Positions 2,233-59,227 of a DNA stretch of 64,000 nucleotides are shown here, one piece after another; position 1 is the stretch's first letter, and the number at the start of each line of letters is the position of its first letter. Source of the DNA: a virus (lineage: Duplodnaviria > Caudoviricetes); IMG/VR virus record IMGVR_UViG_2811995091_000080, positions 1 to 64,000 of that record; one strand, written 5' to 3'. Under the pieces are notes generated by a model. The model made no database searches. It saw nothing but the letters and a program-made list of their open reading frames with translations, and was not told where the DNA came from. The translations under genes were made by a program, and so were the position numbers.

Positions 2233-2681
2233 TGGGCAACTACACCTCCCCCGCACAGATGCGCGCCTCGCTGGCTAACGTCATCACCGACGAGCAGATG
2301 CTTGAGAAGGTGGTCGGTGACTACTTCAAGCGCAACGCCCCTGCTCCCGTATCGAAGCAGGCCCCCGTTACCGGCTATCGCCCGAAGGCGCATTACGCTG
2401 CCCCTGCCAAGTCGAGCATCGTCCAGCAGGACGAAGACTATCACACGCACATGGAGCGCGGCTCTGAGGCGCTGGCGCAGGCAATCGAGACGATGCTTGC
2501 CGGTGGAGTCCCCAAGACACCGAGCCGCCTTATCTGGAGCACCGTAAGCGGCGCTGATGCTGGTCAAGGGGTCACTGAACGCGATGCGATCCCCCGCCCC
2601 ACTTACAAGGTTGTCACATACAGCACGCCCTGCATGAAGTGCGGCGCTGCCCGTTCGTGCGCTCACAGGGGCGGCGAATAA
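2232..2681 (+). CDS. Hypothetical protein with C-terminal CxxC motif
   Basis: Clear homolog at 45563-46012. Confidence 0.75.
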   Translation: MGNYTSPAQMRASLANVITDEQMLEKVVGDYFKRNAPAPVSKQAPVTGYRPKAHYAAPAKSSIVQQDEDYHTHMERGSEALAQAIETMLAGGVPKTPSRLIWSTVSGADAGQGVTERDAIPRPTYKVVTYSTPCMKCGAARSCAHRGGE

Positions 2682-3187
2682 TGGGCAAGGAATGGCGAAC
2701 CCTTGAATGGCTCCCCGACTACGCGATCAGCGAAGACGGAGATATTGAGCGCGTTGTTGATGGTGTGACCCGCAAGGCTGGTTTCCGCCCGCGTGGCAAC
2801 ACGCACAACGGCTATCTTCGGTATAAGCTCAGTATCGACGGGAAAAAGCGAATGCTCCTTGCGCACAGATTGGTGTGTGAGGCGTGGCACGGCACACCGC
2901 CTACGTCCAAGCATCATGCCGCTCATGGCGATGGAAACCCGCTCAACAATCACTTCTCGAACCTTCGCTGGGCAACGTGCTTGGAGAACCAGCGCGACCG
3001 CCGCAAGCACGGCACCGCCCCCATAGGCGAGAACAACCCGCGCGCAAAAATCACCGCTGCGCAAGCGCGTGAAATCAAGCGCCGCTATTGTGGCCGCTAC
3101 GGTCAAGTCGCTCAACTCTCTCGCGAGTTCGGACTTAGCCATTCGGCCACCTTGTCGATCTGCAAGGGGGAGCATTGGAATGGCTGA
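2681..3187 (+). CDS. Free-standing HNH homing endonuclease (NUMOD4-like N-terminus)
   Basis: AHRLVCEAW...HAAHGDGNPLNNHFSNLRWATCLEN. Absent from B. Confidence 0.9.
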   Translation: MGKEWRTLEWLPDYAISEDGDIERVVDGVTRKAGFRPRGNTHNGYLRYKLSIDGKKRMLLAHRLVCEAWHGTPPTSKHHAAHGDGNPLNNHFSNLRWATCLENQRDRRKHGTAPIGENNPRAKITAAQAREIKRRYCGRYGQVAQLSREFGLSHSATLSICKGEHWNG

Positions 3188-3512
3188 CCCGGCTAACGTC
3201 CGTCGCGGCAAGAACAACAAACGCCGTGGTGCGAACTACGAAAGAGAGCTGGTGCAGGACTTCGCCGCCTTCGGGCTGCGTTCGCGCCGTGTGCCCCTCT
3301 CTGGTGCCACTGAATACGCCAAGAACGATGTCGAGGTGACGGCAGGGTTCGACGGCAAGACCGTATTCAGCGGGGAAGCCAAGCGCCGCAAGGCCCTGCC
3401 CAAGTTCTTCACCGAAGCACTCGACGGCGCGGACTTTGCAGCTTTCCGCCAGGACCACGGCGAAACGCTCATTGTCATGCGCCTCCAGACATTCGCGGAG
3501 CTACTGCAATGA
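3180..3512 (+). CDS. PD-(D/E)xK Holliday junction resolvase-like nuclease
   Basis: GANYEREL...ND...EAKRRK motifs. Homolog at 46012-46320. Confidence 0.75.
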   Translation: MADPANVRRGKNNKRRGANYERELVQDFAAFGLRSRRVPLSGATEYAKNDVEVTAGFDGKTVFSGEAKRRKALPKFFTEALDGADFAAFRQDHGETLIVMRLQTFAELLQ

Positions 3513-10399: not shown

Positions 10400-10720
10400 A
10401 TGGCTAAGGCTCCGCCGGTCTTCATGAAGCGCCCAGAGCGCAAGGCGTGGAGGCCAGAGAGTAAGCGCGACACAAACCGCATTAGGGGCAGCATGGGGCA
10501 AAAGCTGCGCAAGAGGCGCATGGAGCGCACTAACTGGCTTTGTGAGGATTGCTCGGCAAAGGGCCTAGTCCGTGCCGCTGACGTAGTGGACCACATCAAG
10601 CCATTGGCTCTTGGCGGCGAGGATGTTGACAGCAACACACGTAATTTATGCAATGACTGCCATAAGGTCCGCACCAAGGAGCAGTTTGGGCGTAATACCC
10701 CGCCCCCCACCAAAAGTTGA
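10400..10720 (+). CDS. Terminase-associated HNH endonuclease (HK97 gp74-like)
   Basis: CEDC...VDHIKPL..GG....N...LC..CH. Precedes cos and terS. Confidence 0.9.
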   Translation: MAKAPPVFMKRPERKAWRPESKRDTNRIRGSMGQKLRKRRMERTNWLCEDCSAKGLVRAADVVDHIKPLALGGEDVDSNTRNLCNDCHKVRTKEQFGRNTPPPTKS

Positions 10721-10759
10721 CAGACTGCGACCCTAGACACCGCCGCCCCAGCAACATTT
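10713..10759. other. Putative cos region of A (candidate cosN CGCCGCCCC, 10741-10749)
   Basis: Lies between HNH and terS. Identical 47-nt block in B at 53421-53467. Confidence 0.6.
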
Positions 10760-10793
10760 CTATTCCTGCATAATTCGTTCGGAGGTTTTGACG

Positions 10794-11195
10794 ATGGCTC
10801 GACCACGCAAACCGACGCACCTCCACGTGGTCAGCGGGTCGGCAAAGACCAACCCCGGCAGGCTGGCTGATAGAGAGGCGGAGCCTGTGGCTGACGATGA
10901 CATTCGCGGGATCGAGGCTCCGGATTATCTGGACGAAGGGCTTGCGGCAATTTGGCGCGAGGTGGCCGGGATGCTTCACGCGAGGGTCGCGTCCAACCCG
11001 GACATGATCGCGCTGGAGGCCCTTGTTAGGCTGGTCGCGCGGATGCGGACTGGCGAGATGTCGGCAGCGGACTACGCGCGCTTGCAAGGCTACCTTGGAG
11101 AGTTCGGCATGACGCCCGCTAGTCGGTCGAAGGTATCGCAGGGCAAGAAGGCGGTCGAGAAGAAGGGCTTCGCCGCGCTTAAGGGTGCCGGGTGA
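10794..11195 (+). CDS. terS: Terminase small subunit (P27 family)
   Basis: RPRKPT N-terminus, EFGMTPASRSK C-terminus. Confidence 0.88.
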   Translation: MARPRKPTHLHVVSGSAKTNPGRLADREAEPVADDDIRGIEAPDYLDEGLAAIWREVAGMLHARVASNPDMIALEALVRLVARMRTGEMSAADYARLQGYLGEFGMTPASRSKVSQGKKAVEKKGFAALKGAG

Positions 11196-12868
11196 CGTTC
11201 ACCGAACGCGCTAAGGCCTACGCCTCAGCAATTGCGAAAGGCGAGATTGACGCTTGCCGACTGGTTCGGCTTTCGTGCCAGCGGTTCTTGGACGACATCG
11301 AACGTAAGGATTGGAAGTTCAAGCCCGAGCTGGTGGAGCGGGTCTGCGGCTTCGCGGAATTGATGCCGCACGTTAAAGGCAAGTGGGCGCGGACGCGAGA
11401 GTTCATCAAGCTTGAAGACTGGCAAGTCTTCATCTTGGCTTGCCTGTTCGGGTTTGTTGACGGCGAAGGGCGGCGGCGGTTCCGCCAAGCCTACATCATG
11501 CTGCCGAGAAAGCAGGGCAAGTCAATCCTCGCTGCGGTGATCGGCCTCTATATGCTGACCCTCGATGGCGAGGCAGGGGCGGAGGTCTATTGCGGCGCGA
11601 CTAGCGAGGCGCAGGCTTGGGAAGTGTTCCGGCCCGCTAAGCAGATGGCGCAGCAGGCGGGTGAAACTCCCGGCGAGTTCTTGGCGGAGTTCGACGCGGA
11701 TGTTGCGGCGAAGTCGATCTACACAGCAGACGGCTCCCGCTTTCAGCCGGTGATCGGCAAGCCGGGGGACGGTAGTTCGCCGCATTGCGCTATCATTGAC
11801 GAATACCACGAACACGACACGCCCGACCAGTTCGACACGATGCTGACCGGCATGGGCGCTCGCGAGCAACCGCTGGCGCTGGTGATTACTACGGCAGGCG
11901 ATAACGTTGGCGGCCCCTGCCACGACATGCAGAAGTTTGCCGAGGATGTGCTGGAGGGCGTGATCGGAGACGATCAGTTCTTCGGTATCATCTACACGAT
12001 AGACAAGGCGGACGACTGGCGCGACTTCGACGTTTGGAAGAAGGCCAACCCGAACCTTGGCGTCTCGATCTTCGAGGACTTTCTAAGGGCGCGGCACCAA
12101 GAGGCGATCAACCGGCCCTCAAAGCAGGGTATCAACCTGACGAAGCACCTCAACGTGTGGGTTTCGTCGCGCGATGCCTGGTTGAATATGTCTGATTGGC
12201 AGGCGTGCGCCGATGGCGGGCTGACGCTGGATGAGATGGCGGGGTGCGAGGCATGGATCGGCCTCGACCTTGCAACGAAGGTGGACGTTGCTGCGCTGGT
12301 CGCAAAGATCAGGATGGCAGACGGGCGCTTTGCCTACTGGCCGTTTTTCTATCTGCCTGAAGCGCAGGTTCTAGAGGGCAAGTCAAAGAACTCGGCGGCG
12401 TATGGCGGTTGGGCGGCATCGGGCCATCTGAACCTGACGCCGGGGGACGCAACAGATTTTGAGTATGTGGCCGAAGACATTCGGAAGCTGGCGAAGCTTC
12501 TGGATGTGCAGGCCTTGGGCTTTGACCCGTATCAGGGTCATCATCTTTCACAGCAGCTTATGAGTGAAGGGCTGCCGGTTATCGAATACCCGATGCAGAC
12601 GCGCACGCTGTCCCCGCCCATGCGGGAGATGGAGGCGGCGATTGCGGCGAAGAGGCGTGTTCACCCCGGCAACCCGATGTTCGACTGGATGGCTTCCAAC
12701 GTTACGGCGAAGGAAGACGGGCGCGGCAATATCTATCCGCGCAAACCGCACGGGCAGGACCACCTGAAGATCGACGGAATAACGGCTGCGCTGATGGCGG
12801 AGGGACTGAGCATGGAAGAAACCGAAGGCCGCTCCGTTTATGAAGAGCGCGGGATCTTGGTGTTCTGA
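11192..12868 (+). CDS. terL: Terminase large subunit
   Basis: PRKQGKS Walker A, IIDEYH Walker B, GLDLA and KIDG nuclease motifs. Confidence 0.96.
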   Translation: MTFTERAKAYASAIAKGEIDACRLVRLSCQRFLDDIERKDWKFKPELVERVCGFAELMPHVKGKWARTREFIKLEDWQVFILACLFGFVDGEGRRRFRQAYIMLPRKQGKSILAAVIGLYMLTLDGEAGAEVYCGATSEAQAWEVFRPAKQMAQQAGETPGEFLAEFDADVAAKSIYTADGSRFQPVIGKPGDGSSPHCAIIDEYHEHDTPDQFDTMLTGMGAREQPLALVITTAGDNVGGPCHDMQKFAEDVLEGVIGDDQFFGIIYTIDKADDWRDFDVWKKANPNLGVSIFEDFLRARHQEAINRPSKQGINLTKHLNVWVSSRDAWLNMSDWQACADGGLTLDEMAGCEAWIGLDLATKVDVAALVAKIRMADGRFAYWPFFYLPEAQVLEGKSKNSAAYGGWAASGHLNLTPGDATDFEYVAEDIRKLAKLLDVQALGFDPYQGHHLSQQLMSEGLPVIEYPMQTRTLSPPMREMEAAIAAKRRVHPGNPMFDWMASNVTAKEDGRGNIYPRKPHGQDHLKIDGITAALMAEGLSMEETEGRSVYEERGILVF

Positions 12869-14136
12869 TGGGCTTTTTGACACGCATCTCGGACTGGATT
12901 GACCCGCCTAGCGTCGAGCCTACGGCAGTTGCGCCTACGGTTCCGGTGCAGGCTTATTCGGTGATCGACCTCGCGAGCGATGCAGGCCTAGAGGACTTCC
13001 TGCGCAACGGTAGCGGCAATCTTGCCGGTGCCACGATGAACCGCAAGACCGTGATGCGGAACACCGCTGTTAAACGCAGTGTCAACCTCATCTCGAATGT
13101 CATGGGTATGCTGCCCCTGCACCTTTTGCAGAAGGCGGATGGCGGGGATGACAAGAAGGCCCGCGACCACGCGCTGTTCGAGATTCTTGCCGACAAGACG
13201 AACACACAGCAGGACGCTTTTCAGTTTCGCCGCCTTGTGCAGCGTTGGGCGCTGGTCGATGGCAATGGCTATGCCGAAGTGCTGCGCTCGCGCGGACGTA
13301 TTACCGGATTGATGCCGATACACCCTAGCAAGGTGCAAAAGCGCGAGAACTGGGGCGACCCTTACAAGGTCAACAACTCCAACGGCGGCACGCGGGTCAT
13401 CGCGCCCGAGAATATGTTTCACCTTATGGGTGATAGCGACGATGGCCTTAACGGTATCTCGCTGCTCGATGAGGCTGCGGATGCTCTGGGCCTCGCGTTG
13501 CAGGCCGACAAAGCGGCTGCGCGGCTGTTCAAGCATGGCGCACTAATCCGCGATGTGCTGTCCAAGGAAGGCAAGCTGAGTAAGGAAGCTATAGCCAACC
13601 TGAAAGAGAGCCTTGGCGATGAATACGGCGGTTCGGACAACGCCAACCGCACCTTGGTCCTCGAAGAGGGCCTTAAATACCAATCCGTGCAGGCGAACGC
13701 GAAGGACAGCCAGCACCTAGAAACCCGCGACCACCAGATCGAGGAAATCGCCCGCGTGTTCGGGATGCCGCGCCCGTTCCTGATGATGGACGATACAAGC
13801 TGGGGCAGCGGGATCGAGCAGCTTGGCATCTACTTCACAACCTACACGCTCGCGCCGTGGCTCAAAGCTTGGGAATCGGCAATCAGCCGCATTCTCCTAA
13901 CCAACGAAGAGCGCCGAAGCGGGCTTTATCCGAAGTTCAATGAGCGTGCCTTGCTGCGCGGTTCGATGGCCGACCAGGCCGAGTTCTTCAGCAAGATGAT
14001 GGGTTCCGGCGGCTCGCCGCAGATCATGGAACAAAATGAGGCTCGGGCGCTGCTCGACCTTCCCGAGCACCCGGAAGGTTCCGGGCTTAATAGCGGTGCA
14101 GTCAATGGAGGTGGCGACAATGCCCCGACCGAATAA
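12868..14136 (+). CDS. Portal protein, HK97 family
   Basis: GISLL...A, LEEGLKY, EEIARVFGMP, NEAR motifs. Position after terL. Confidence 0.95.
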   Translation: MGFLTRISDWIDPPSVEPTAVAPTVPVQAYSVIDLASDAGLEDFLRNGSGNLAGATMNRKTVMRNTAVKRSVNLISNVMGMLPLHLLQKADGGDDKKARDHALFEILADKTNTQQDAFQFRRLVQRWALVDGNGYAEVLRSRGRITGLMPIHPSKVQKRENWGDPYKVNNSNGGTRVIAPENMFHLMGDSDDGLNGISLLDEAADALGLALQADKAAARLFKHGALIRDVLSKEGKLSKEAIANLKESLGDEYGGSDNANRTLVLEEGLKYQSVQANAKDSQHLETRDHQIEEIARVFGMPRPFLMMDDTSWGSGIEQLGIYFTTYTLAPWLKAWESAISRILLTNEERRSGLYPKFNERALLRGSMADQAEFFSKMMGSGGSPQIMEQNEARALLDLPEHPEGSGLNSGAVNGGGDNAPTE

Positions 14137-14953
14137 GATCCGTCTCAACACCAGCCAGAAGGTTACGGCCCTCACCAGCGAGGGCGCGCTTGATCGCTGG
14201 CAGCCTGCCATTCAGGCGGCAGTCGAGGATGACAACACGATTAGCGTTTATGACGTTATCGGTGAGGACTTCTGGACCGGCGAAGGCGTGACGGTGAAGC
14301 GGATCGACGCGGCCCTTCGCAAGATCGGCAACCGTGACGTTGTGGTCAATATCAACAGCCCCGGCGGCGATGTCTTCGAGGGCATCGCGATCTACAATCG
14401 CCTGCGCGAGCATCCGGCGAAGGTGCAGGTCAAGGTGATGGGCCTCGCCGCTTCCGCCGCCTCGATTATCGCGATGGCTGGCGATGAGGTGCAGATTGGC
14501 GAAGCGTCTTTCCTGATGATCCATAACGCTTGGGTCATGGCAGTGGGCAACCAGTTTGACCTGCGCGAAGTCGCTGACTTCCTCGCACCGTTCGATGAGG
14601 CCCTGCGCGATGTTTACGTGCAGCGAACCGGCACCGACGCAAGCGAGGTTGAGGCCATGATGAAGGCTGAAACTTGGATTAGCGGCAAGAAGGCTGTTGA
14701 AACCGGCTTTGCCGACACGCTGCTGAGCGCGGATGAAACCAAGCAGGTCGAGAATGCGGCGAACCCGCAGGTCAATGCCTTGCGCCGCGCTGAAGCCAAT
14801 CTTTGCAAGGAAATGCCCCGCTCGGCGGCGCGTGACCTGCTCAACCAGATCAAGGGCAAGCAAGACGCTGCCCCTGACCCCGCCACGCAGGACGCTGGCG
14901 ACCCTGAACTGTCCACCGCCCTTGCTGGGTTGCTGGATACCATTCGGGCCTAG
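14120..14953 (+). CDS. ClpP-like (S14) head maturation protease
   Basis: INSPGGDVFEG, GLAASAASII, MIHN, ETW. Confidence 0.93.
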   Translation: MPRPNKIRLNTSQKVTALTSEGALDRWQPAIQAAVEDDNTISVYDVIGEDFWTGEGVTVKRIDAALRKIGNRDVVVNINSPGGDVFEGIAIYNRLREHPAKVQVKVMGLAASAASIIAMAGDEVQIGEASFLMIHNAWVMAVGNQFDLREVADFLAPFDEALRDVYVQRTGTDASEVEAMMKAETWISGKKAVETGFADTLLSADETKQVENAANPQVNALRRAEANLCKEMPRSAARDLLNQIKGKQDAAPDPATQDAGDPELSTALAGLLDTIRA

Positions 14954-14982
14954 CGCCCATTTTCACGACAGGAAGTAACACA

Positions 14983-16230
14983 ATGACTAAGATGATCGCT
15001 GGCGCGGGTCTTGCCGCCCTCGCCGCTAACGCTCCGCGTGGCCTTGTTGCCATGCCACGTGCCGAAGCCAACGACCCGAAGGCTCTGGTCGCTCAGCTCA
15101 ACAACGCCTTTGAAGAGTTCAAGGCTGCTCAGGACGAGAAGCTTGCCGCCAAGGCAGACGATGTTGTCCTGAACGAGAAGGTTGACCGCCTCAACAACGC
15201 AATGTCGGACATTGAGGCTGCGCTGAACGAGAAGATCGCCGCTGCGCAGACCGTCAGCCCGCAGGGTGACATGAAGCCGACCGACCCTGAATACCTGAAC
15301 GCCTTTAAGGCGCACATGCGTAAGGGTGATGTCCAGGCTGCCATGACCGTTGGCACCGACGCAGACGGTGGCTACCTCGCTCCGGTCGAGTGGGATCGCA
15401 CCGTCACTAATGCGCTGAAGCAGCGTTCGCCCATCCGCGACAATGCCCAGGTCATCACGATCAGCGGAACCGGCTTTAGCCGCGTTTACAATGATGGTGT
15501 GGTCGGCAGTGGTTGGGTCGGTGAAACCGCCGCCCGTCCCGAGACCTCTACTCCGGGCCTGTCCACCCTCAACTTCGAGACCGGCGAACTCTACGCTAAC
15601 CCCGCGATTTCGCAGAAGGCGCTGGATGACGTTGCAATCGACCTTGAAGGCTGGATTCGTGACGAGGTTTCGGGCGAGTTCGCCATTCAGGAAAACATCG
15701 CTTTCCTGAGCGGCAACGGCACGAACAAGCCGTTCGGCATCCTCACCTACGTCACGGGCGCGACCAACGCTACGAAGCACCCGTTCGGCGCTATCGCAGC
15801 CGTGAACGGCACCGGCACCTCGCTCACTGACAGCGATGACCTGCTGAGTGTCATCTACGACCTGCCGAGTGAGCGCAACGGCAACGCCAAGTGGTACATG
15901 AACCGCAGCACGCTGGGCGTGATCCGCACCCTGAAGGACGGTAACGACAACTACCTGTGGCAGCCTTCGTATCAGGCTGACCAGCCTTCTTCGCTCGCCG
16001 GTTATTCGGTGGTCGAGGTTCCGGGTATGCCTGACATCGGCGCAAGCGCGGTTCCGGCTCTCTTCGGTGATATGGCGATGACCTATCTGGTTGTCGATCG
16101 CGTGGGCCTTCGCGTCCTGCGTGACCCGTTCACCAACAAGCCGTTCGTCCACTTCTACACGACTAAAAGGGTCGGGGGTGGAGTCCAAAATCCTGAGTAC
16201 ATGCGCGCGCTTAAGATGGCAGCGGCTTGA
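14983..16230 (+). CDS. Major capsid protein, HK97 fold
   Basis: DGGYLAP, G.G..KPFGIL, LWQPS, RVGG motifs. Confidence 0.96.
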   Translation: MTKMIAGAGLAALAANAPRGLVAMPRAEANDPKALVAQLNNAFEEFKAAQDEKLAAKADDVVLNEKVDRLNNAMSDIEAALNEKIAAAQTVSPQGDMKPTDPEYLNAFKAHMRKGDVQAAMTVGTDADGGYLAPVEWDRTVTNALKQRSPIRDNAQVITISGTGFSRVYNDGVVGSGWVGETAARPETSTPGLSTLNFETGELYANPAISQKALDDVAIDLEGWIRDEVSGEFAIQENIAFLSGNGTNKPFGILTYVTGATNATKHPFGAIAAVNGTGTSLTDSDDLLSVIYDLPSERNGNAKWYMNRSTLGVIRTLKDGNDNYLWQPSYQADQPSSLAGYSVVEVPGMPDIGASAVPALFGDMAMTYLVVDRVGLRVLRDPFTNKPFVHFYTTKRVGGGVQNPEYMRALKMAAA

Positions 16231-16317
16231 TTAATACTCCGATTTTGCTATGACGAAGGGGCGGAACTGCTGGTAACAGTCCGCCCCTTCTAACCAACCG
16301 AACGTACGAGGTTCGAT

Positions 16318-16869
16318 ATGGCTGCATTCTCTTTATGCAAGATTCCGGATTGTGGAAACCCCAAGCGGGCGCGGGGATGGTGCGCAAAGCACTACATGCG
16401 CTGGAAAACGCATGGAGACCCTAAGATTAATCTATTGCCGCAAAGGCGCGTGCGGCAAAAAGTTATCCGTACTTGCAAAATTGATGGCTGCGAACGTGAT
16501 GTGGTTAGCCGGGGGTGGTGTAACGCACATTATCATAGGTGGTCTCGAAGCGGGGAAGTAAACGAAGCAACGCCCATCAAAGAGATTGGTAAACAATCTC
16601 GCTGCGTCGAGAAAAGCGGATACGTGACTTACACGGATAGTTCTCATCCTATGGCGAATAAGAATGGCCGCGTTCTAGAGCACCGCGCCGTGATGGCCGA
16701 GGTGCTCGGACGCCCGCTCCGTAAGGACGAAAACGTACACCACAAGAATGGCAACCGATCCGATAATCGACCCGAGAACTTGGAACTTTGGGTTAAGCAG
16801 CAACCTGCCGGGCAGCGAGTCGAAGACTTACTGGCGTGGGCAAACGAGATCATCGACCGCTACGGCTAG
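16318..16869 (+). CDS. Free-standing HNH homing endonuclease with zinc-binding repeats
   Basis: EHRAVMAEVLGRPL...VHHKNGNRSDNRPENLEL, two C..GWC..HY repeats. Absent from B. Confidence 0.92.
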   Translation: MAAFSLCKIPDCGNPKRARGWCAKHYMRWKTHGDPKINLLPQRRVRQKVIRTCKIDGCERDVVSRGWCNAHYHRWSRSGEVNEATPIKEIGKQSRCVEKSGYVTYTDSSHPMANKNGRVLEHRAVMAEVLGRPLRKDENVHHKNGNRSDNRPENLELWVKQQPAGQRVEDLLAWANEIIDRYG

Positions 16870-16983
16870 CCGTACTGGACCGACTGATAGGGGTAAGCGA
16901 GGCGCTGCCCCGACCATATGGAAAGTAAGCGCAAAGAATGGGCGGAGCGAGAGTTCCGCCCCAACCCCTTTGGGAGAATACCA

Positions 16984-17196
16984 ATGACCAAGAAGAAAGA
17001 CGGCGAGATGGAAGCTTCGGGCGCTATCATCGCGAAAGAAGACAAGGCAATCGACACCAGCCATCCGGCGGTCGATGCCAACCCGCGCCAGGGCGATGAC
17101 CTTCCGCCCGAGGCCAATCAGATCGACTTCAACGTTCCTTCGGCGCAGAAGCCTGCCAAGGAAGCCGTTGCAGACAACCTGAAGGCGCAGGACTAA
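16984..17196 (+). CDS. Small acidic protein after capsid
   Basis: Identical protein at 58990-59202. Confidence 0.75.
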   Translation: MTKKKDGEMEASGAIIAKEDKAIDTSHPAVDANPRQGDDLPPEANQIDFNVPSAQKPAKEAVADNLKAQD

Positions 17197-17221
17197 GCGT
17201 GCGGCGGCGGAGGGCGCAACG

Positions 17222-17764
17222 ATGACTTACAACCTTCGCCGCCTCACCCCTATTGATGGTGAGGATGTGCTACCGCTTGCTGATGCGAAGCTGTCCGCGC
17301 ATATCACCAGCGACGACGAGGACACTGTGCTTGCGGGCTTCCGTGATGCCGCGCTGTCTGAAGTCGAGAAGCTATCCGGCTATGCTGTGGACGGCGGCCA
17401 GTTCGTTTGGGAGCAACCCCGTTTCGGGCGGCACAATATCCTGCCGGTTCGCGGTGCAACCTCGATTGATAGCGTGGCATATATGGGCAGCGATGGCGTT
17501 AGCGCGAGCTATGCGGACGCGCGCCTAGTCAACGGCGCGGCCTACCCCGCTGTCGGTGGATCTTGGCCCACGGCCTACGGCTCGGCGGCAATAACCTTCA
17601 CGGTGGACGCTGCCTCGGCTGACAAGCTGGCGCTGCTGATTATCGCGGCGCAGCTGAAGTTTCAGGTCTTCGAGAACCGAGGGCGCGACGACGCCAAGTA
17701 TATCGAAGGCATCGAGATGGCGATTGCCTCCACTCTCAATTCGATCCGTGGCGATACGCTGTGA
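17222..17764 (+). CDS. Head-tail connector (HK97 gp6 / SPP1 gp15-like)
   Basis: LPLADAKLSAHI..DDED motif, synteny. Confidence 0.8.
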   Translation: MTYNLRRLTPIDGEDVLPLADAKLSAHITSDDEDTVLAGFRDAALSEVEKLSGYAVDGGQFVWEQPRFGRHNILPVRGATSIDSVAYMGSDGVSASYADARLVNGAAYPAVGGSWPTAYGSAAITFTVDAASADKLALLIIAAQLKFQVFENRGRDDAKYIEGIEMAIASTLNSIRGDTL

Positions 17765-18087
17765 CCGCAGGACGTAGGGACCAGCTTGTCACGCTGGAGC
17801 GATATTCAGCCACTATGAACGAATACAACGAAGAGGTCGATTTCGTTTGGACGCCTCTCGGACAAGAATGGGCAGCGGTTTACTACGGCAAAGGCAGCGA
17901 GCGTCGGCAGGCCGCTATGGAGCAGGGAAGCCAGCCCGCTAACTTCCAATTCCTGTCGAACGCGCAGACGCGGGGGCTGACGCTGAAGGATCGCATCGAG
18001 CATAACGGCGTCTGGGATGTGGTCGGCATTAGCCCCGATACGCCCGAGCGCGGATTGCTGGAGGTTACGGCAGTTCGCGCAGCCTAA
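17761..18087 (+). CDS. Head closure / head-tail adaptor (SPP1 gp16-like)
   Basis: AGRRDQLVTL...NEYNE...WA motif, synteny. Confidence 0.85.
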   Translation: MTAGRRDQLVTLERYSATMNEYNEEVDFVWTPLGQEWAAVYYGKGSERRQAAMEQGSQPANFQFLSNAQTRGLTLKDRIEHNGVWDVVGISPDTPERGLLEVTAVRAA

Positions 18088-18404
18088 GCGCAACGCTGAA
18101 GGGCCGAACGATAAGGGATAAGCCCGTTAACTCGCCAGACCTTGCCCTCGCCATCGTTTGAGATGGTGATGAACAGCGTCGTGGCGTTCTCCTGAACAAA
18201 GGTAATTGTCGTTTCGCTCTCACCTTGAAGGACTGAGGGCGAGCCGATCTTCGAGACGCTTTCGGAGATGCACTGGGCAACGCGCATCGGGGGCTTGGCG
18301 GTGTTGAATGTGTGAACTGGCGGGCGGTTGCGCAGGTCGGATGCGGTTGTCGTGCAAGCCATGACACTGGCGGCGGCGACTAGCGCGAGAGCGGTTCTTT
18401 TCAT
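18084..18404 (-). CDS. Antisense moron lipoprotein
   Basis: MKRTALALVAAASVMAC signal peptide/lipobox. Conserved at 60087-60407. Confidence 0.8.
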   Translation of the reverse strand: MKRTALALVAAASVMACTTTASDLRNRPPVHTFNTAKPPMRVAQCISESVSKIGSPSVLQGESETTITFVQENATTLFITISNDGEGKVWRVNGLIPYRSALQRCA

Positions 18405-18452
18405 GGCCGAGCAATAGCGACCAAGTTTAGCGAAAAGTCAAGGGGTGCGGCA

Positions 18453-34843: not shown

Positions 34844-35422
34844 TCACTTAAGCCACCCCCAGCGCCTTCCACACCGGATGGAGCGCACAGTGTCATAGGA
34901 AACGCCATAGGCATCCGCCGCGTCCCGGTGCCCGCGTGTGTCGGCGCGGATAGCGCGAACGTCATCCTCTGACAGCTTGGCCGAGTGCGACTTGGTGCCG
35001 CGCGGGCTTGTGCCGTCTATGAGGGTGTCTGCCATATTGTTTGGGCGCGTATCTTCGCGAATGTGCTGCGGGTTAATGCACGACCGATTGTGGCACACCT
35101 CAGGAGCGTGGCAGGCGTCCATTTCAGGTGCCATTTTCCGCCCATTGTATAACTCCCACGCCGCACGGTGAGCGGGCATCTGCGCGCCGCCCCAAACGAG
35201 CCGTCCGTACCCTAACCTGTCGAGCGCGAACGGCCACAGGATACAATTATCCGTTGGCGCCCCCACTGCGTGCCTAAGGAACGCTTGCGGCTCCCCCGGC
35301 AGAGCATTTCCGCCAAGTGGGTGGCCATGGCGTTTCAGCCTCCCGTGGTGAGCAAGGCAAAGGACACCGATGCGCCGGGGGTTGTCGCACCAATCAATTG
35401 AACATAACTGCTGCTGCATCAT
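34844..35422 (-). CDS. Free-standing HNH endonuclease next to att
   Basis: AHRAAWE...DACHAPEVCHNRSCINPQHI...NN. Confidence 0.88.
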   Translation of the reverse strand: MMQQQLCSIDWCDNPRRIGVLCLAHHGRLKRHGHPLGGNALPGEPQAFLRHAVGAPTDNCILWPFALDRLGYGRLVWGGAQMPAHRAAWELYNGRKMAPEMDACHAPEVCHNRSCINPQHIREDTRPNNMADTLIDGTSPRGTKSHSAKLSEDDVRAIRADTRGHRDAADAYGVSYDTVRSIRCGRRWGWLK

Positions 35423-35484: not shown

Positions 35485-35698
35485 AGGTACGAGTGTACAC
35501 CACCCCTAGAACAGACGCAAAACAAAAAGGGCCTATATTGCGCAAATCCTTGTGGGTTTGTCCGTAGAAACCGCAGATTTGCGCGGGCACCTCCTGTTTA
35601 CACCGAGAAGGTCGGGGGATCGTGGCCCTCAGCGCCCACCACGTTTTCTGCGAGTTTCGGCCTGTGTACGCCCTACCCCCAAAGGTACAACGGTACAC
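35485..35698. other. attP-like junction with arm-type repeats AGGTACnAnnGTACAC (35485-35500, 35683-35698)
   Basis: Direct repeats flank the tRNA-derived core, which adjoins the int stop codon. Confidence 0.75.
35596..35641 (+). pseudogene. 3' half of tRNA-Val(TAC) serving as att core / replacement fragment, with non-canonical T-loop
   Basis: G TTTACAC CGAGA AGGTC GGGGG ATCGTGG CCCTC AGCGCCC A CCA. No D-arm or 5' half upstream. Confidence 0.8.
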
Positions 35699-36669
35699 TA
35701 AAAGTCCGTCGCGCTGCTCGCATCCCTCATAAATGACGGGGAGTACCGGGCATAAACCTGCTCGGTCATCCGCAGCGAAGTGTGCCCCAGATACTGGCTG
35801 ATTAGCTGCATGGGCACATTGTCCTGCGCCATCCATACCGCGCAGGTGTGGCGCAGCGTGTGCGGCGAGAACGGTATCCCCGCGCGCACAGATAGCCGCT
35901 GAATCGCCTTTTTGACCGAACCTACCGGCTTGCCGCCATACTCCACCACATGATCGGTTAGGCGTGCCGCCAGCGCCAGTTCCAGCGCGGTCCGAACGCG
36001 GCTGTTCATCGGTACGACCGTGCGGCGCTTGTTCGTCTGCACACGCCCCGGCGGGCGAAAGTCGATTGTGCCGTGATCGAAGTCCACGCGATCCCAAGTG
36101 AGATCCAGTATCGCGCCAGCTCGCGCTCCTGTCGCCAGCCCCAGCGTCACGAAAAGCTTTATGTGTGGCGTGTCGGCAAGGTCCACGATCTTGCGCGCCT
36201 GCTCCTTGGTCAGCCAATTGTCGCGCGGCTTCGATGCTGGCGGAATCCATATCGAGGGTGCGGCAGTGCCGTACCTGTGGCGCAGGCAGGCCCGCAGCAA
36301 CTCCAGGTCGGTTTTGATCGTGCTGTCGCTGTAGCCGAATTCCTTGCGTCGCTTGTGGTAGCTTCGGCAGTCCTCGCGCGTGATCGTGCTGCCTATCCGG
36401 TCGGCAAACTGCCCCGCCAGTGCATCCCAATGGGCCTTGAAGCGATCCGCCCGCGCCCCGTCCGCTATCCTGTCCGCGACATAGACCGGCCATAGGTCGC
36501 CTACCTTGTCGCTCTTTGCGGCTGTGAGGCGCTGCCAAATCTCTCTGGCGATGCTTTCGGCCTTTGACTCGTCAGCCGTGCCAGTCGTGATGCGTCGGCG
36601 CGTTCCTCCCTCGTCTCGGTAGGTAACGGCGAGTTTGCCTCTGTGCATTGTGAGGGTGTATTCTGACAC
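35698..36669 (-). CDS. int: Tyrosine integrase
   Basis: TGARAGAI (R), HTLRHT (HxxR), LGH, Y in VYARY. Start GTG 36669 or ATG 36648. Confidence 0.95.
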   Translation of the reverse strand: MSEYTLTMHRGKLAVTYRDEGGTRRRITTGTADESKAESIAREIWQRLTAAKSDKVGDLWPVYVADRIADGARADRFKAHWDALAGQFADRIGSTITREDCRSYHKRRKEFGYSDSTIKTDLELLRACLRHRYGTAAPSIWIPPASKPRDNWLTKEQARKIVDLADTPHIKLFVTLGLATGARAGAILDLTWDRVDFDHGTIDFRPPGRVQTNKRRTVVPMNSRVRTALELALAARLTDHVVEYGGKPVGSVKKAIQRLSVRAGIPFSPHTLRHTCAVWMAQDNVPMQLISQYLGHTSLRMTEQVYARYSPSFMRDASSATDF

Positions 36670-36824
36670 TCGTACCGCTCGACCTCGCTGGCAGGTATGC
36701 GGATAAGCTTGCCGAGCGCGAAGCCCGCAAGATCTCCGTTGCGGTACATAAGCCGGACCTTCTCTGCCGAGCAACCCCAGCGTTCAGCGAGCGTCTTGGG
36801 CGAGTAGGGCTTGGGAGCGGTCAC
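36501..36824 (-). CDS. xis: Excisionase (HTH_17-like), overlapping the int 5' end
   Basis: YSPKTLAERWGCS...LGKLIRIP. Confidence 0.8.
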   Translation of the reverse strand: MTAPKPYSPKTLAERWGCSAEKVRLMYRNGDLAGFALGKLIRIPASEVERYECQNTPSQCTEANSPLPTETREERADASRLARLTSQRPKASPERFGSASQPQRATR

Positions 36825-37222: not shown

Positions 37223-37400
37223 TGTGTGCCTCCTGTGCGCGGAGGGCGGTAAGGATGGCCGCCCATGTCGCAGCGGCGCTAAGGCTGCGCTCGGCAGACT
37301 GCGCAGACCCCACCTCTTCGGCGCGCTCATAATTCAACATGTGGTATTCGAACCACTCTTCGGCACGCTCGATACGCTCGGCCAGCTTTGTGTCGGTCAT
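37215..37400 (-). CDS. Hypothetical protein
   Basis: RBS AGGAG, overlaps neighbours. Confidence 0.55.
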   Translation of the reverse strand: MTDTKLAERIERAEEWFEYHMLNYERAEEVGSAQSAERSLSAAATWAAILTALRAQEAHNG

Positions 37401-38113
37401 TGTGATTGCTCCTGATTGGGGGTGGGCGATGGCCGCGCTTTCATCCGCTTCTGCCATTTCGAGGCTGTCGAGATTGAGATATTGAAGCGCCGCGCCAGCC
37501 TCCTGCCGCCAAGCCCCTCTTCCATTGCCTCTAGGAAAAGCGCCTCATCGACCTTGGTTTTTTGCTTGCCCCCAGGCGTTCTCTCCGGAGGTGTAAGTGA
37601 GGCCGTGACCCGCGCCCAATTCTTCCCCGCGCGAATATCGTCCACTGCGGACACCGTGACCCCAAACTTCTCCGCGAAAACGGAAGCGGGTTCATCGCTC
37701 AGATAGATTTCCTTGACAGCCTTCTCGTTGAGTTTGGCCCTCGGGTGATTTTCGCCATGGGGCTTCGTACCATGGATTTGCATGTGCCGGTGGTTCTCAG
37801 CTTTGGTCACCCAAGCTAAATTCTCCGCTCGCGGGTCTGTCCGATCACCGTTCAGATGAGCGGCCTCAAGGCCTGGTAGGCTAGGCTCGCCGTGGAATGC
37901 TCGACAGACGAGGCGGTGAACAGTCTTGGCATACCGCTTCCCGTCCTTGCTCATGCCGACAATCAGGTACCCATGGCTGTCATTGCCGTGGGCCAATATC
38001 TTGACGCCCCGAGCAGACGAGCGGACCCGCCCATAATTCGACACCTCATACCAGTGTTCGAAGTCAGGGCACGGTCGCCACACTTCGCCCTCCTCGGTCT
38101 GTCGGCTATTCAT
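37397..38113 (-). CDS. NUMOD4-HNH homing endonuclease
   Basis: WRP...YEVSNYGRVRS, VHRLVCRAF, HLNGDRTD...NLAW. Confidence 0.9.
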   Translation of the reverse strand: MNSRQTEEGEVWRPCPDFEHWYEVSNYGRVRSSARGVKILAHGNDSHGYLIVGMSKDGKRYAKTVHRLVCRAFHGEPSLPGLEAAHLNGDRTDPRAENLAWVTKAENHRHMQIHGTKPHGENHPRAKLNEKAVKEIYLSDEPASVFAEKFGVTVSAVDDIRAGKNWARVTASLTPPERTPGGKQKTKVDEALFLEAMEEGLGGRRLARRFNISISTASKWQKRMKARPSPTPNQEQSQ

Positions 38114-38333
38114 CAACGCCTCCTTTGAGTGCGGCAAACTCTCTGCAAATATCCTCGAAGCGCGGGAGCATCTTGCGTCCGTCCGCTTCTGCTGCCTTGC
38201 GTCCTCGCGCGGTAATCGCTGCTCGCAATTGCGCCTGTTCGCGCTCGATGCGCTTGAAGGCGACGATCTGCTCGGCCAGCGATAGCTGTGCGCCTGCTTT
38301 GACCAGGCGGGGCTTGTGGGCGCGGGTGGTCAT
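38106..38333 (-). CDS. Hypothetical protein
   Basis: Left-operon ORF. Confidence 0.5.
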   Translation of the reverse strand: MTTRAHKPRLVKAGAQLSLAEQIVAFKRIEREQAQLRAAITARGRKAAEADGRKMLPRFEDICREFAALKGGVDE

Positions 38334-45562: not shown

Positions 45563-46012
45563 ATGGGTGAATACACCTCCCCCGCGCAGATGCGCGCCGA
45601 ACTCGCCAACGTCATCACCGACAAGGCTTTCCTTGATCGGGTCATCACTGACTATTTCAAGGCCAACCCGCCCGCGCCGGTTCCTGACTACGCGCCGGTC
45701 AAGGGCTTCCGCAAGAAGTCGCACTACGCGGCCCCTGCCAAGCAAGACATTATTCGGCAGGACGAGGACTATCATACGCACATGGAGCGCGGCTCTATGG
45801 CGCTTGGGCAGGCAATCGAGACAATGCTTGCTGGCGGCACCCCTCGCACCCCTAGCGACCTTTGCTGGCTTCGCGCCAGTGGTGCGGACGCTGGACACGG
45901 CACAAGCGAACGCGATGCGATCCCCCAGCCCACTTACAAGCATGTCACCTACAGCACGCCCTGCATGAAGTGCGGCGCGGCCCGTTCGTGCGCTCACAGG
46001 GGCGGCGAATAA
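45563..46012 (+). CDS. Hypothetical protein, homolog of 2232-2681
   Basis: Sequence homology. Confidence 0.75.
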   Translation: MGEYTSPAQMRAELANVITDKAFLDRVITDYFKANPPAPVPDYAPVKGFRKKSHYAAPAKQDIIRQDEDYHTHMERGSMALGQAIETMLAGGTPRTPSDLCWLRASGADAGHGTSERDAIPQPTYKHVTYSTPCMKCGAARSCAHRGGE

Positions 46013-46320
46013 TGGGCAAGCCAAGCCGGGACAAGGGCGCTCGATATGAGCGAGAGCTGGTGCAGGACTTCGCCGCCTTCGGGCTGCGTTCGCGCCGTGT
46101 GCCGCTGTCCGGTGCCACCGAATACGCCAAGAACGATGTTGAGGTGGTCGCTGGCTATGACGGCAAGACCGTGTTCAGCGGGGAAGCCAAGCGCCGCAAG
46201 GCCCTGCCCAAGTTCTTCACCGAAGCACTCGACGGCGCGGACTTCGCAGCCTTCCGCCAGGACCATGGCGAAACGCTCATTGTCCTGCGCCTTAAGACAT
46301 TTGCCGAGCTGCTCCAGTGA
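46012..46320 (+). CDS. Holliday junction resolvase-like nuclease (HNH-free allele)
   Basis: MGKPSRDKGARYEREL. Homolog of 3180-3512. Confidence 0.78.
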   Translation: MGKPSRDKGARYERELVQDFAAFGLRSRRVPLSGATEYAKNDVEVVAGYDGKTVFSGEAKRRKALPKFFTEALDGADFAAFRQDHGETLIVLRLKTFAELLQ

Positions 46321-53108: not shown

Positions 53109-53444
53109 ATGCCTAACTCCCCGCCGGTCTTCATGAAGCGCCCAGAGCGCAAGGCATGGAGGCCAGAGAGTAAGCGCGACACAAACCGCATTAGGGGCAG
53201 CAAGGGGCAAAAGCTGCGCAAGAGGCGCATGGAGCGCACTAACTGGCTTTGTGAGGATTGCTCGGCAAAGGGCCTAGTCCGCACCGCTGATGTAGTGGAC
53301 CACATCAAGCCACTTGCTCTTGGCGGCGAGGATGTTGACAGCAACACGCGCAATTTATGCAATGACTGCCATAAGGTCCGCACCAAGGAGCAGTTTGGGC
53401 GTAATACCCCGCCCCCAAGCAAAGTTGACAGACTGCGACCCTAG
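53109..53444 (+). CDS. Terminase-associated HNH endonuclease
   Basis: Near-identical to 10400-10720. Confidence 0.9.
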   Translation: MPNSPPVFMKRPERKAWRPESKRDTNRIRGSKGQKLRKRRMERTNWLCEDCSAKGLVRTADVVDHIKPLALGGEDVDSNTRNLCNDCHKVRTKEQFGRNTPPPSKVDRLRP

Positions 53445-53467
53445 ACACCGCCGCCCCAGCAACATTT
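53421..53467. other. Putative cos region of B (candidate cosN 53449-53457)
   Basis: Identical to A 10713-10759. Confidence 0.6.
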
Positions 53468-53501
53468 TCATATCCCCATAATTCGTTCGGAGGTTTTGAC
53501 G

Positions 53502-53903
53502 ATGGCTCGACCACGCAAACCGACGCACCTCCATGTGGTCAGCGGGGCAGCAGCAAAGCACCCTGACAGGATGCGTGAGCGCGAGGCGGAGCCTGTGACT
53601 GACGATGACATTCGCGGGATCGAGGCCCCGGATTATCTGGACGACGAGCTTGCGGCAATCTGGCGCGAGGTGGCTGGGATGCTTCACGCGCGGGTCGCGT
53701 CCAACCCGGACATGATCGCGCTGGAGGCCCTTGTTAGGCTGGTCGCGCGAATGCGGACTGGCGAGATGTCGGCGGCGGACTACGCGCGTTTGCAAGGCTA
53801 CCTTGGCGAGTTCGGCATGACGCCCGCTAGTCGGTCGAAGGTGTCGCAGGGCAAGAAGGCGGTCGAGAAGAAGGGCTTCGCCGCGCTCAAGGGTGCCGGG
53901 TGA
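53502..53903 (+). CDS. terS: Terminase small subunit
   Basis: Homolog of 10794-11195. Confidence 0.88.
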   Translation: MARPRKPTHLHVVSGAAAKHPDRMREREAEPVTDDDIRGIEAPDYLDDELAAIWREVAGMLHARVASNPDMIALEALVRLVARMRTGEMSAADYARLQGYLGEFGMTPASRSKVSQGKKAVEKKGFAALKGAG

Positions 53904-55576
53904 CGTTCACCGACCGCGCTAAGGCCTACGCCTTGGCTATCACGAAAGGCGAGATTGCCGCTTGCCGACTGGTTCGGCTTTCGTGCCAGCGGTTTCTAGA
54001 CGACCTCGACCGTGGGGATTGGGAGTTCAAGCCCGAGCTGGTGGAGCGGGTCTGCGGCTTCGCGGAATTGATGCCGCACGTTAAGGGCAAGTGGGCGCGA
54101 ACGCGAGAGTTCATCAAGCTTGAGGACTGGCAGGTCTTCATTCTCGCTTGCCTGTTCGGGTTTGTGGATCGCGATGGGCGGCGGCGGTTCCGCCAAGCCT
54201 ACATCATGCTGCCGAGGAAGCAGGGTAAGTCAATTCTCGCTGCGGTGATCGGCCTCTATATGCTGACCCTCGACGGCGAAGCAGGTGCGGAGGTCTACTG
54301 CGGCGCGACTAGCGAGGCGCAGGCATGGGAAGTGTTCCGCCCCGCTAAGCAGATGGCGCAACAGGCAGGTGAAACTCCTGGCGAGTTCTTGGCGGAGTTC
54401 GACGCGGATGTTGCCGCGAAGTCGATCTACACAGCGGACGGATCTCGCTTTCAGCCGGTGATCGGCAAGCCGGGGGACGGTAGCTCCCCGCATTGTGCGA
54501 TCATTGACGAATACCACGAACACGACACGCCCGACCAGTTCGACACGATGCTGACCGGCATGGGCGCTCGCGAGCAACCGCTGGCGCTGGTGATTACTAC
54601 AGCGGGCGATAACGTTGGTGGCCCCTGCCACGACATGCAGAAGTTTGCCGAGGATGTACTGGAGGGCGTCATCGGAGACGATCAGTTCTTCGGTATCATC
54701 TACACGATAGACAAGACCGACGACTGGCGCGACTTCGATGTTTGGAAGAAGGCCAACCCGAACCTTGGCGTCTCGATCTTCGAGGACTTTCTGAGGGCGC
54801 GGCACCAAGAGGCGATCAACCGGCCCTCAAAGCAGGGCATCAACCTGACGAAGCACCTCAACGTATGGGTTTCCTCGCGCGACGCCTGGTTGAATATGTC
54901 CGACTGGCAGGCTTGCGCTGACGGTGGGTTGACGCTGGAAGAGATGGCAGGGTGTGAGGCATGGATCGGCCTCGACCTTGCAACGAAGGTAGACGTTGCC
55001 GCGCTGGTCGCAAAGATCAGGATGGCAGACGGGCGCTTTGCCTACTGGCCGTTCTTCTACCTGCCGGAAGCGCAGGTTCTAGAAGGCAAGTCAAAGAACT
55101 CGGCGGCGTATGGCGGTTGGGCGGCATCGGGCCACCTGAACCTGACGCCGGGGGACGCAACAGATTTTGAGTATGTGGCCGAAGACATTCGGAAGCTGGC
55201 GAAGCTTCTGGATGTGCAGGCTTTAGGCTTCGACCCTTATCAGGGTCATCATCTTTCACAGCAGCTTATGAGTGAAGGGCTGCCGGTTATCGAATACCCG
55301 ATGCAGACGCGCACTCTGTCCCCGCCAATGCGGGAGATGGAGGCGGCGATTGCGGCGAAGAGGCGTGTTCACCCCGGCAACCCGATGTTCGACTGGATGG
55401 CTTCCAACGTTACGGCGAAGGAAGACGGGCGCGGCAATATCTATCCGCGCAAACCGCACGGGCAGGACCACCTGAAGATCGACGGAATAACGGCTGCGCT
55501 GATGGCGGAGGGACTGAGCATGGAAGAAACCGAAGGCCGCTCCGTTTATGAAGAACGCGGGATCTTGGTGTTCTGA
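53900..55576 (+). CDS. terL: Terminase large subunit
   Basis: Homolog of 11192-12868. Confidence 0.96.
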   Translation: MTFTDRAKAYALAITKGEIAACRLVRLSCQRFLDDLDRGDWEFKPELVERVCGFAELMPHVKGKWARTREFIKLEDWQVFILACLFGFVDRDGRRRFRQAYIMLPRKQGKSILAAVIGLYMLTLDGEAGAEVYCGATSEAQAWEVFRPAKQMAQQAGETPGEFLAEFDADVAAKSIYTADGSRFQPVIGKPGDGSSPHCAIIDEYHEHDTPDQFDTMLTGMGAREQPLALVITTAGDNVGGPCHDMQKFAEDVLEGVIGDDQFFGIIYTIDKTDDWRDFDVWKKANPNLGVSIFEDFLRARHQEAINRPSKQGINLTKHLNVWVSSRDAWLNMSDWQACADGGLTLEEMAGCEAWIGLDLATKVDVAALVAKIRMADGRFAYWPFFYLPEAQVLEGKSKNSAAYGGWAASGHLNLTPGDATDFEYVAEDIRKLAKLLDVQALGFDPYQGHHLSQQLMSEGLPVIEYPMQTRTLSPPMREMEAAIAAKRRVHPGNPMFDWMASNVTAKEDGRGNIYPRKPHGQDHLKIDGITAALMAEGLSMEETEGRSVYEERGILVF

Positions 55577-56844
55577 TGGGCTTTCTAACGTTCATCTCGG
55601 ACTGGATTGACCCGCCTAGCGTCGAACCTACGGCAGTTGCGCCTGCGGTCCCGGTGCAGGCTTATTCGGTGATCGACCTCGCGAGCGATGCTGGCCTAGA
55701 GGACTTCCTGCGCAACGGTAGCGGCAACCTTGCTGGGGCCACGATGAACCGCAAGACCGTGATGCGGAACACCGCTGTTAAGCGCAGCGTCAACCTCATC
55801 TCGAATGTCATGGGTATGCTGCCCCTGCACCTTTTGCAGAAGGCCGATGGAGGGGATGACAAGAAGGCCCGCGATCACGCGCTGTTCGAGATCCTTGCCG
55901 ACAAGACGAACACGCAGCAGGACGCTTTTCAGTTCCGCCGCCTTGTGCAGCGTTGGGCGCTGGTCGATGGCAATGGCTATGCCGAAGTGTTGCGCTCGCG
56001 CGGACGTATTACCGGATTGATGCCGATACACCCTAGCAAGGTGCAAAAGCGCGAGAACTGGGGCGACCCGTACAAAGTCAACAACTCCAACGGCGGCACG
56101 CGGGTTATCGCGCCCGAGAATATGTTCCACCTTATGGGTGACAGCGACGATGGCCTTAACGGCATCTCGCTGCTGGACGAGGCTGCGGATGCGTTGGGTC
56201 TTGCGCTCCAAGCGGACAAGGCGGCAGCACGGCTGTTCAAGCACGGCGCGCTAATTCGCGATGTGCTGTCCAAAGAGGGCAAACTCAGCCCCGAGGCAAT
56301 CGCCAATCTGAAGGCCAGCCTTGGCGATGAATACGGCGGTTCGGACAACGCCAACCGCACCTTGGTTCTCGAAGAGGGCCTTAAATACCAATCCGTGCAG
56401 GCGAACGCGAAGGACAGCCAGCACCTAGAAACCCGCGACCACCAGATCGAGGAAATCGCCCGCGTGTTCGGGATGCCGCGCCCGTTCCTGATGATGGACG
56501 ATACAAGCTGGGGCAGCGGGATCGAGCAGCTTGGCATCTACTTCACAACCTACACGCTCGCGCCGTGGCTCAAAGCTTGGGAATCGGCAATCAGCCGCAT
56601 TCTCCTGACCAACGAAGAGCGCCGAAGCGGGCTTTATCCGAAGTTCAATGAGCGTGCCTTGCTGCGCGGTTCGATGGCCGACCAGGCCGAGTTCTTTAGC
56701 AAGATGATGGGTTCCGGCGGCTCGCCGCAGATCATGGAACAGAATGAGGCTCGGGCGCTGCTCGACCTTCCCGAGCACCCGGAAGGTTCCGGGCTTAACA
56801 GCGGCGCAGTCAATGGAGGTGGCGACAATGCCCCGACCGAATAA
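55576..56844 (+). CDS. Portal protein
   Basis: Homolog of 12868-14136. Confidence 0.95.
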   Translation: MGFLTFISDWIDPPSVEPTAVAPAVPVQAYSVIDLASDAGLEDFLRNGSGNLAGATMNRKTVMRNTAVKRSVNLISNVMGMLPLHLLQKADGGDDKKARDHALFEILADKTNTQQDAFQFRRLVQRWALVDGNGYAEVLRSRGRITGLMPIHPSKVQKRENWGDPYKVNNSNGGTRVIAPENMFHLMGDSDDGLNGISLLDEAADALGLALQADKAAARLFKHGALIRDVLSKEGKLSPEAIANLKASLGDEYGGSDNANRTLVLEEGLKYQSVQANAKDSQHLETRDHQIEEIARVFGMPRPFLMMDDTSWGSGIEQLGIYFTTYTLAPWLKAWESAISRILLTNEERRSGLYPKFNERALLRGSMADQAEFFSKMMGSGGSPQIMEQNEARALLDLPEHPEGSGLNSGAVNGGGDNAPTE

Positions 56845-57661: not shown

Positions 57662-57690
57662 CGCCCATTTTTACGACAGGAAGTAACACA

Positions 57691-58938: not shown

Positions 58939-58989
58939 GAACTGGCGGGAGGGTTTCGGCCCTCCCCCAACCCCTTTGGGAGAATACCA

Positions 58990-59202: not shown

Positions 59203-59227
59203 GCGTGCGGCGGCGGAGGGCGCAACG

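Follow-up and report, generated by a model that had tools for sequence, protein, structure and literature searches.

Intronless homing, the co-conversion of flanking DNA and the existence of immune alleles are established principles. In free-standing intronless homing, the nuclease gene lies between genes rather than in an intron and is present in some relatives and absent from others; the sequence it targets is part of a conserved essential gene nearby, some way off from where the nuclease gene is inserted, the flank is carried along by co-conversion, and the carrier allele differs at the target. Here we describe a locus with these features (the difference at the target being read from the sequence) in a 64,000-nucleotide stretch of DNA from a virus of the Caudoviricetes (the window; positions 1 to 64,000 of IMG/VR record IMGVR_UViG_2811995091_000080). 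The locus is a 795-bp block (16164-16958) that takes in the 3' end of a major capsid gene and a following HNH_3 nuclease gene (16318-16869), and on sequence evidence it is probably a free-standing homing endonuclease cassette whose intronless homing is aimed at the capsid gene 3' end. The locus departs from the described cases in that it is carried by a temperate HK97-like phage whose host is a marine, probably sphingomonad-like, bacterium, and in that its target, as predicted from sequence alone, is the 3' end of the capsid gene. To our knowledge, homing has been little studied in temperate HK97-like phages.

Other described systems resemble the locus in part. The sections of Barth et al. 2023 (PMC10448857) drawn on here report that homing nuclease genes cluster near essential phage genes and stand at the borders of segments that have been exchanged next to capsid, terminase and polymerase genes; the gene studied here likewise stands beside a capsid gene. 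However, the cases in those sections concern the T5orf172 and IPA-HNH families in ICP1-like and other lytic phages, and a rewritten capsid tail is not described there as a linked feature. The T4 Mob proteins (PMC10448857) have a domain order opposite to the one found here, where two N-terminal zinc knuckles precede the HNH_3 core. I-HmuI, an intron-encoded HNH_3 nicking enzyme of Bacillus phage SPO1 (1u3e), belongs to the same Pfam family and its catalytic domain matches residues 91-162 of the protein, but it is encoded in a group I intron, has a different DNA-binding part and is 23% identical over 66 residues; the present gene lies in no intron. The HK97 gp74-type HNH protein (PMC10448857) is also an HNH nuclease of the structural or late region of an HK97-like phage, but its gene is conserved and adjoins the terminase genes, whereas the 16318-16869 gene belongs to another Pfam family, follows the capsid gene and is dispensable in relatives.

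The HNH_3 cassette and its recurrence after capsid genes

The record contains two collinear, mosaically related phage units of ~43 kb, A and B (Table 1), and the capsid genes of the two units offer a direct comparison of alleles with and without the nuclease. Their head modules are 95.3% identical (10400-16223 versus 53109-58931), and the capsid codons over 16093-16161 are identical to those over 58801-58869. Beyond this point the last 22 codons differ at 14 synonymous positions, by an Ala/Ser change at 16225 and by the stop codon (TGA/TAA), while the 21 residues from TKRV to KMAA are unchanged. Homology resumes at 16959/58965, where the next 138 nt are 100% identical and the match (16959-18442 versus the block 58965-60445) has 91.2% identity; 795 bp in A thus stand in place of 93 bp in B. 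An earlier note on this DNA had described the block as an HNH cassette that replaces the capsid 3' end with a synonymously recoded copy and exchanges the capsid-terminal hairpin for an equivalent one; its counts, junctions and 795/93-bp exchange were all reproduced, and RNA folding confirmed both hairpins in A and the one in B. The cassette consists of the HNH_3 gene with its own ribosome-binding site, the two hairpins, and the linked, silently rewritten last 22 capsid codons. A promoter and terminator scan of the + strand over 15900-17300 gave no promoter and no U-tract terminator. The capsid open reading frame (ORF) reads at full length without splicing to its stop at 16228-16230, and no group I or group II intron was matched in Rfam within 15800-17400 at E values up to 1. 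An intron- or intein-encoded nuclease is ruled out by the complete capsid ORF, the absence of an Rfam intron match and the HNH gene's own ribosome-binding site and start codon.

The predicted product of the 16318-16869 gene matches Pfam HNH_3 (E 3.6e-10, 39.8 bits, cut-off 24.8) and PHROG 20891 'HNH endonuclease' (E 1e-33). The HNH residues H141, H142, N144, D149, N150 and N154 are invariant in 41 homologues, as are two N-terminal Cys3His zinc knuckles (C7, C12, C22, H25 and C53, C58, C68, H71); the knuckles weakly resemble A20/GATA-type zinc fingers (Z 2-4) and are a putative separate DNA-binding module. The best PDB match of an AlphaFold2 model of the protein (pLDDT 87) is the homing endonuclease I-HmuI (Z 6.4, rmsd 3.4 Å, 66 residues), which is also the first, weak match in Foldseek (E 0.18); a search of PDB sequences with the nuclease yielded nothing useful. 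As judged from these matches, the gene is an intact HNH_3 nuclease gene, and its own ORF, the HNH_3 match and the fold match to I-HmuI bear out its earlier identification as a free-standing HNH gene of homing type. A packaging HNH of the HK97 gp74 type was also considered and is ruled out, as the gene follows the capsid gene, 3.4 kb past the large terminase gene, and neither B nor most relatives have it. Both units in addition keep a separate PF01844 HNH gene at the terminase genes, which argues that the capsid-side gene is an extra gene and not a packaging helper.

In more than 20 independent and divergent contigs, a homologue of the nuclease (41-62% identity) immediately follows an HK97-type capsid gene in the same orientation (L015, L004, L005, L030-L038, L041, L043, L050, L053, L055, L066, L076, L085 and L086, with further cases in L095, L103, L133/L141 and L143-L145). 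Some of the nuclease-bearing capsids are only ~36% identical to that of A and have different downstream genes. In a search of 5.8 billion proteins, all four of the nearest homologues with usable genomic context directly follow capsid genes. A quick tree, in which deep branches are unresolved, places the nuclease of A in a clade of seven that all lie next to capsid genes (SH-aLRT 87), and other clades of the family have fixed positions of their own, behind a helicase, methyltransferase or tail tube gene, or between two genes of ~165 codons for proteins of unknown function. Presence at the capsid site is patchy. The gene is absent from 22 of the 23 viral contigs that encode the capsid C-terminal sequence KRVGGGVQNPEYM, and in a second, sister capsid lineage (L004-type) it accompanies 3 of 68 capsid genes, where the gap after the capsid gene is ~680 nt as compared to 13-114 nt. 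Sporadic presence combined with a recurring site is the distribution expected of a mobile, site-specific element, and the relatives recur at exactly the site at which the earlier note had read the cassette as a homing-type insertion.

A relative of the nuclease (L033:1902-2852) also immediately follows a capsid gene that belongs to a different Pfam family, GP7 (PF20911), and capsid-end targeting may not be limited to PF05065 capsids. Among cultured phages, blastn gave no close relative. The best tblastn match for the nuclease, in Pseudanabaena phage Pan2, was rejected as a named-phage parallel, as the gene there is non-adjacent, ~1 kb past a Mu-type head gene.

Recoding of the capsid tail and its relation to the nuclease

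The tail of the A capsid gene is set apart by its choice of codons. The last 66 nt hold 17 mismatches to B against an A/B background of 4.5% (binomial P ~3e-8). The body of the A gene uses AAG at 17 of 17, CGY at 16 of 16 and CAG at 12 of 12 of the respective positions, whereas its tail contains AAA, AGG and CAA, three codons absent from the rest of the gene. We scored the last 22 codons of capsid genes against the codon preferences of the body of the same gene; because the score is trained on the gene body, it gives absolute z values that are somewhat too large, and only the comparison with controls can be relied on. By this measure the A tail (z -8.2) is the least typical 22-codon window in its gene, whereas the B tail is ordinary (z +0.3). 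Codon choice, not mismatch density, is what distinguishes the capsid tail.

The same contrast appears among relatives. In 18 nuclease-bearing capsid genes the mean tail z is -5.1, with 17 below -2, as compared to +0.19 in 18 nuclease-free genes, 17 of which show nothing (Mann-Whitney P 1.9e-7). Three further bearers score -4.8, -6.4 and -6.8, and untypical last 22 codons are found in 21 of the 22 nuclease-bearing capsid genes examined. Bearers of the L004-type lineage score -7.6, -5.0 and -5.1 against a mean of -1.0 (P 0.002). In the average profile of 20 bearers, codon use turns untypical ~45 codons ahead of the stop and is most so at codons -20 to -16, which encode KRVGGG, whereas the profile of 17 nuclease-free genes is flat.

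A degenerate pattern covering every way to encode the conserved C-terminal sequence found the 23 viral contigs mentioned above. All 22 nuclease-free contigs read AAG CGN ... CAG, as B does, and the single bearer reads AAA AGA ... CAA, as A does. Scanning a metagenome collection for AGR-coded versions of the same sequence returned one contig, which carries a nuclease (57% identity) at the same place. Within these 39 nt, the bearers are 9-10 changes away from the consensus of nuclease-free alleles, as compared to 0-5 in 23 nuclease-free alleles (B included), and sites 3, 4 and 24 (in AAG, CGN and CAG), which are invariant in those 23 alleles, are changed in all three bearers, whose nucleases are only 46-57% identical. 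Within the lineage of A, none of the 23 HNH-less alleles has the recoded end, a finding that could have gone against the earlier note. Beyond PEYM, the amino acids of the tail follow their own capsid lineage and the codons do not: A ends in RALKMAAA, like the RALKMAAS of B, and the ends RFIKQA (L133) and RFLKQA (L015) are like those of their own relatives. Once the L004-type alleles described below are counted, the link between recoding and the nuclease is strong but not absolute.

These features suggest how the cassette would spread. During lytic growth beside a nuclease-free relative in one cell, the enzyme would be made at a low level from the late operon and would recognise the highly conserved DNA that encodes the capsid C-terminal motif KRVGGG...PEYM. 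It would nick or cut at this motif, and repair would then copy the cassette together with the flanking capsid tail from the nuclease-bearing genome. The tail of the carrier would escape cutting, as it encodes the same protein with different codons. The comparative data predict a target within ~40 nt (Table 1) and three silent changes that are expected to confer immunity.

The main rival to homing at the capsid end is that the recoded flank is foreign DNA that hitch-hiked neutrally. In that case ordinary recombination would have brought in the nuclease gene along with the final 66 nt of the capsid gene from a lower-GC, less closely related phage; the silent differences would be neutral passengers under purifying selection on the capsid C-terminus, and the enzyme would not target the capsid end. 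We consider such a passive mosaic patch unlikely. The cassette does have a GC content of 48-53% as compared to ~60%, which fits a foreign source, but a passive patch does not account for the presence of one clade of nucleases at a single site behind capsids as dissimilar as those described above, for the peak of recoding at the motif that is most conserved, for the change of three otherwise invariant sites, identical in every bearer of the motif, or for the lineage-specific protein sequence of the tail.

Several observations nonetheless weigh against homing as proposed here. Two other 66-nt A/B windows, in the portal gene (13460-13610) and in the small terminase gene near 10825, are as diverged as the capsid tail, so that mismatch density alone is not unique to it. 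The portal patch (13460-13610 versus 56168-56318) holds 25 synonymous and 2 non-synonymous changes in 60 codons, lies in an alignment that is otherwise 95% identical, has no nuclease gene nearby, and is probably a gene-conversion patch from a third phage; mosaic recombination alone can create dense patches of silent differences, as a passive origin would require. In the L004-type lineage, 6 of 65 nuclease-free alleles have bearer-like tails (z below -3) and no insertion (gap 71-107 nt; L147, L150, L153, L175, L178 and L190). These alleles, which also speak for a passive patch, may have lost the nuclease and kept a resistant tail, or may have exchanged tails alone; the earlier claim that recoding is tied to the nuclease, which holds across many lineages, does not extend to them. 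Because of them, the recoding may be partly or wholly a footprint of co-conversion or hitch-hiking, or what is left once the nuclease has been lost. In the wider clade, bearers and non-bearers are not divided by any one nucleotide; L030 and L031, for instance, keep AAG CGN. The nearest homologue of the nuclease among the 5.8 billion proteins is only 62% identical, and a search there for relatives more than 90% identical, in which co-conversion tracts might be seen, found none; no recent transfer is traceable and no co-conversion gradient is visible as a result. Finally, we infer from the comparison of alleles that the enzyme cleaves B and that recoding protects A, and the exact cut position and the choice between a nick and a double-strand break are likewise read from it.

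A further alternative, which we regard as quite improbable, is that the nuclease has been domesticated or weaponised and serves the phage, either by cutting the capsid genes of competitors (interference competition) or by aiding DNA processing. The gene is intact, well conserved and placed within the late operon, unit A has three HNH_3 cassettes that are all absent from the matching places in B, and phage homing nucleases can confer a competitive advantage (PMC2988022, PMC10448857). However, most relatives do well without the nuclease, both units already have the gp74-type HNH for a packaging role, and the cutting of competitors' genes overlaps with homing rather than excluding it.

Table 1. 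Positions of the features discussed, numbered as in the virus record.
Feature	Position	Strand	Basis or remark
Phage unit A	1-43156		first unit of the record
Phage unit B	43157 to end of the 83,459-bp virus record		truncated at the record end
Major capsid gene, unit A (HK97 type), 415 aa	14983-16230	+	Pfam Phage_capsid PF05065, E 5.8e-74
Recoded capsid tail, last 22 codons and stop	16162-16230	+	codon comparison with B; first differing base 16164
Strong hairpin after the capsid stop, part of the cassette	16255-16290	+	RNA fold -25.9 kcal/mol, z -3.5; no U tract after it
GAGG ribosome-binding site	16308-16311	+	read from sequence; 6 nt before the HNH start codon
Free-standing HNH_3 endonuclease gene, 183 aa	16318-16869	+	Pfam HNH_3, PHROG 20891
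Second hairpin, right edge of the cassette	16940-16961	+	fold; at the position of the post-capsid hairpin of B
Small conserved downstream gene, 70 aa, right-hand homology arm	16984-17196	+	100% amino acid identity with B; homologues after the capsid gene in most relatives
Major capsid gene, unit B, without nuclease	57691-58938	+	95% identical to A; no HNH gene downstream
Predicted target, 39 nt encoding KRVGGGVQNPEYM in nuclease-free form	58873-58911	+	1 mismatch to the consensus of 23 nuclease-free alleles
Post-capsid hairpin of B, replaced in A	58943-58969	+	fold -23.3 kcal/mol
HK97 gp74-type small HNH, unit A, just upstream of the small terminase gene; not part of the cassette	10541-10678	+	PF01844, E 5.7e-12
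Same packaging-type HNH, unit B (ORF 53109-53444)	53250-53387	+	PF01844, E 9.4e-11
Small terminase gene, unit A	10788-11195		
Large terminase gene, unit A	11192-12868		

Relation of the two phage units

The earlier note had further claimed that a susceptible allele, that of B, lies on the same molecule as the cassette. The first part of this claim agrees with the data, as B carries the nuclease-free consensus sequence with one mismatch in 39 nt, whereas the second does not follow from a marine metagenome contig that holds no host DNA. The integrase gene of unit A (35698-36774, Pfam) lies in the middle of the unit, and an ORF of unit B (80080-81093) occupies the matching place; each has homologous phage DNA on either side. 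With both integrase and attachment (att) regions flanked by phage DNA, a tandem prophage array would need at least three units. A search with ARAGORN for a tRNA at the att sites found none anywhere in the window. Both ends of the record fall within A/B-homologous patches, and a tandem, a cointegrate or an assembler's join of two co-occurring phages are all possible and compatible with the record. The contigs of public sequencing runs are 150-300 nt long at ~3x depth; no piece among them spans 43157 and none covers 58227-60000 at 98% identity or above. All three clear HNH_3 cassettes of the record lie in unit A, with none at the matching places in B, which argues against long co-replication of the units. 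On balance, physical linkage of A and B on one molecule is doubtful. The runs that contain 15900-17100 may be the source of this DNA, and the B-specific parts are present in two of them; it is likely that A and B co-occur in one community, as homing requires.

The same observations bear on whether the contrast between A and B is an assembly artefact and the cassette no real insertion polymorphism, which is very improbable. The record is a low-coverage marine metagenome contig whose ends lie in patches shared by A and B, but four runs of two studies contain all of 15900-17100 and the same gene order recurs in many independent contigs; such doubt touches only the linkage of A to B and not the cassette.

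Whatever their linkage, A and B form a clean natural pair of temperate HK97-like phages, one nuclease-bearing and one nuclease-free, that are 95% identical up to the junction. Sharp patches of odd codons at the ends of phage structural genes may be readable as footprints of mobile nucleases, which would aid the interpretation of mosaic boundaries.

Other nuclease indels and capsid gene ends

A broader reading, which we offer tentatively and hold to be somewhat unlikely, is that capsid gene 3' ends are a general homing hotspot that arose repeatedly in unrelated viruses, with the rewritten tail acting as a portable immunity module. It would span HK97-fold capsids, taking in the 16318-16869 case, several HNH_3 clades and the GP7-type capsid in L033. 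If it were true, nuclease-free recoded alleles would be the resistant survivors of past invasions, and codon usage at the ends of capsid genes would be determined by an arms race with selfish nucleases and not by translation.

Unit A differs from B at other nuclease genes as well. A second HNH_3 cassette lies at 2681-3243 (46012-46051 in B), where 554 bp replace 31 bp. Its HNH gene uses the start codon with which the following gene (MGK...) begins in B; in A this following gene starts anew at 3180 with a new N-terminus, and the first codons that it shares with B (G-A-x-Y-E-R) are rewritten, the theme of the capsid tail at the 5' end of a gene. The third nuclease indel lies on the minus strand at 37427-38087 (81898-82001 of the record in unit B), where 661 bp replace ~104 bp; the NUMOD4, HNH_3 and HTH gene found there (37397-38137, minus strand) has its first nine codons (MNSRQTEEG) in common with a short ORF of B. 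Beside the integrase gene, a minus-strand segment at 34844-35422 has a weak HNH_3 match (18.7 bits, below the cut-off) and may be a decayed nuclease gene.

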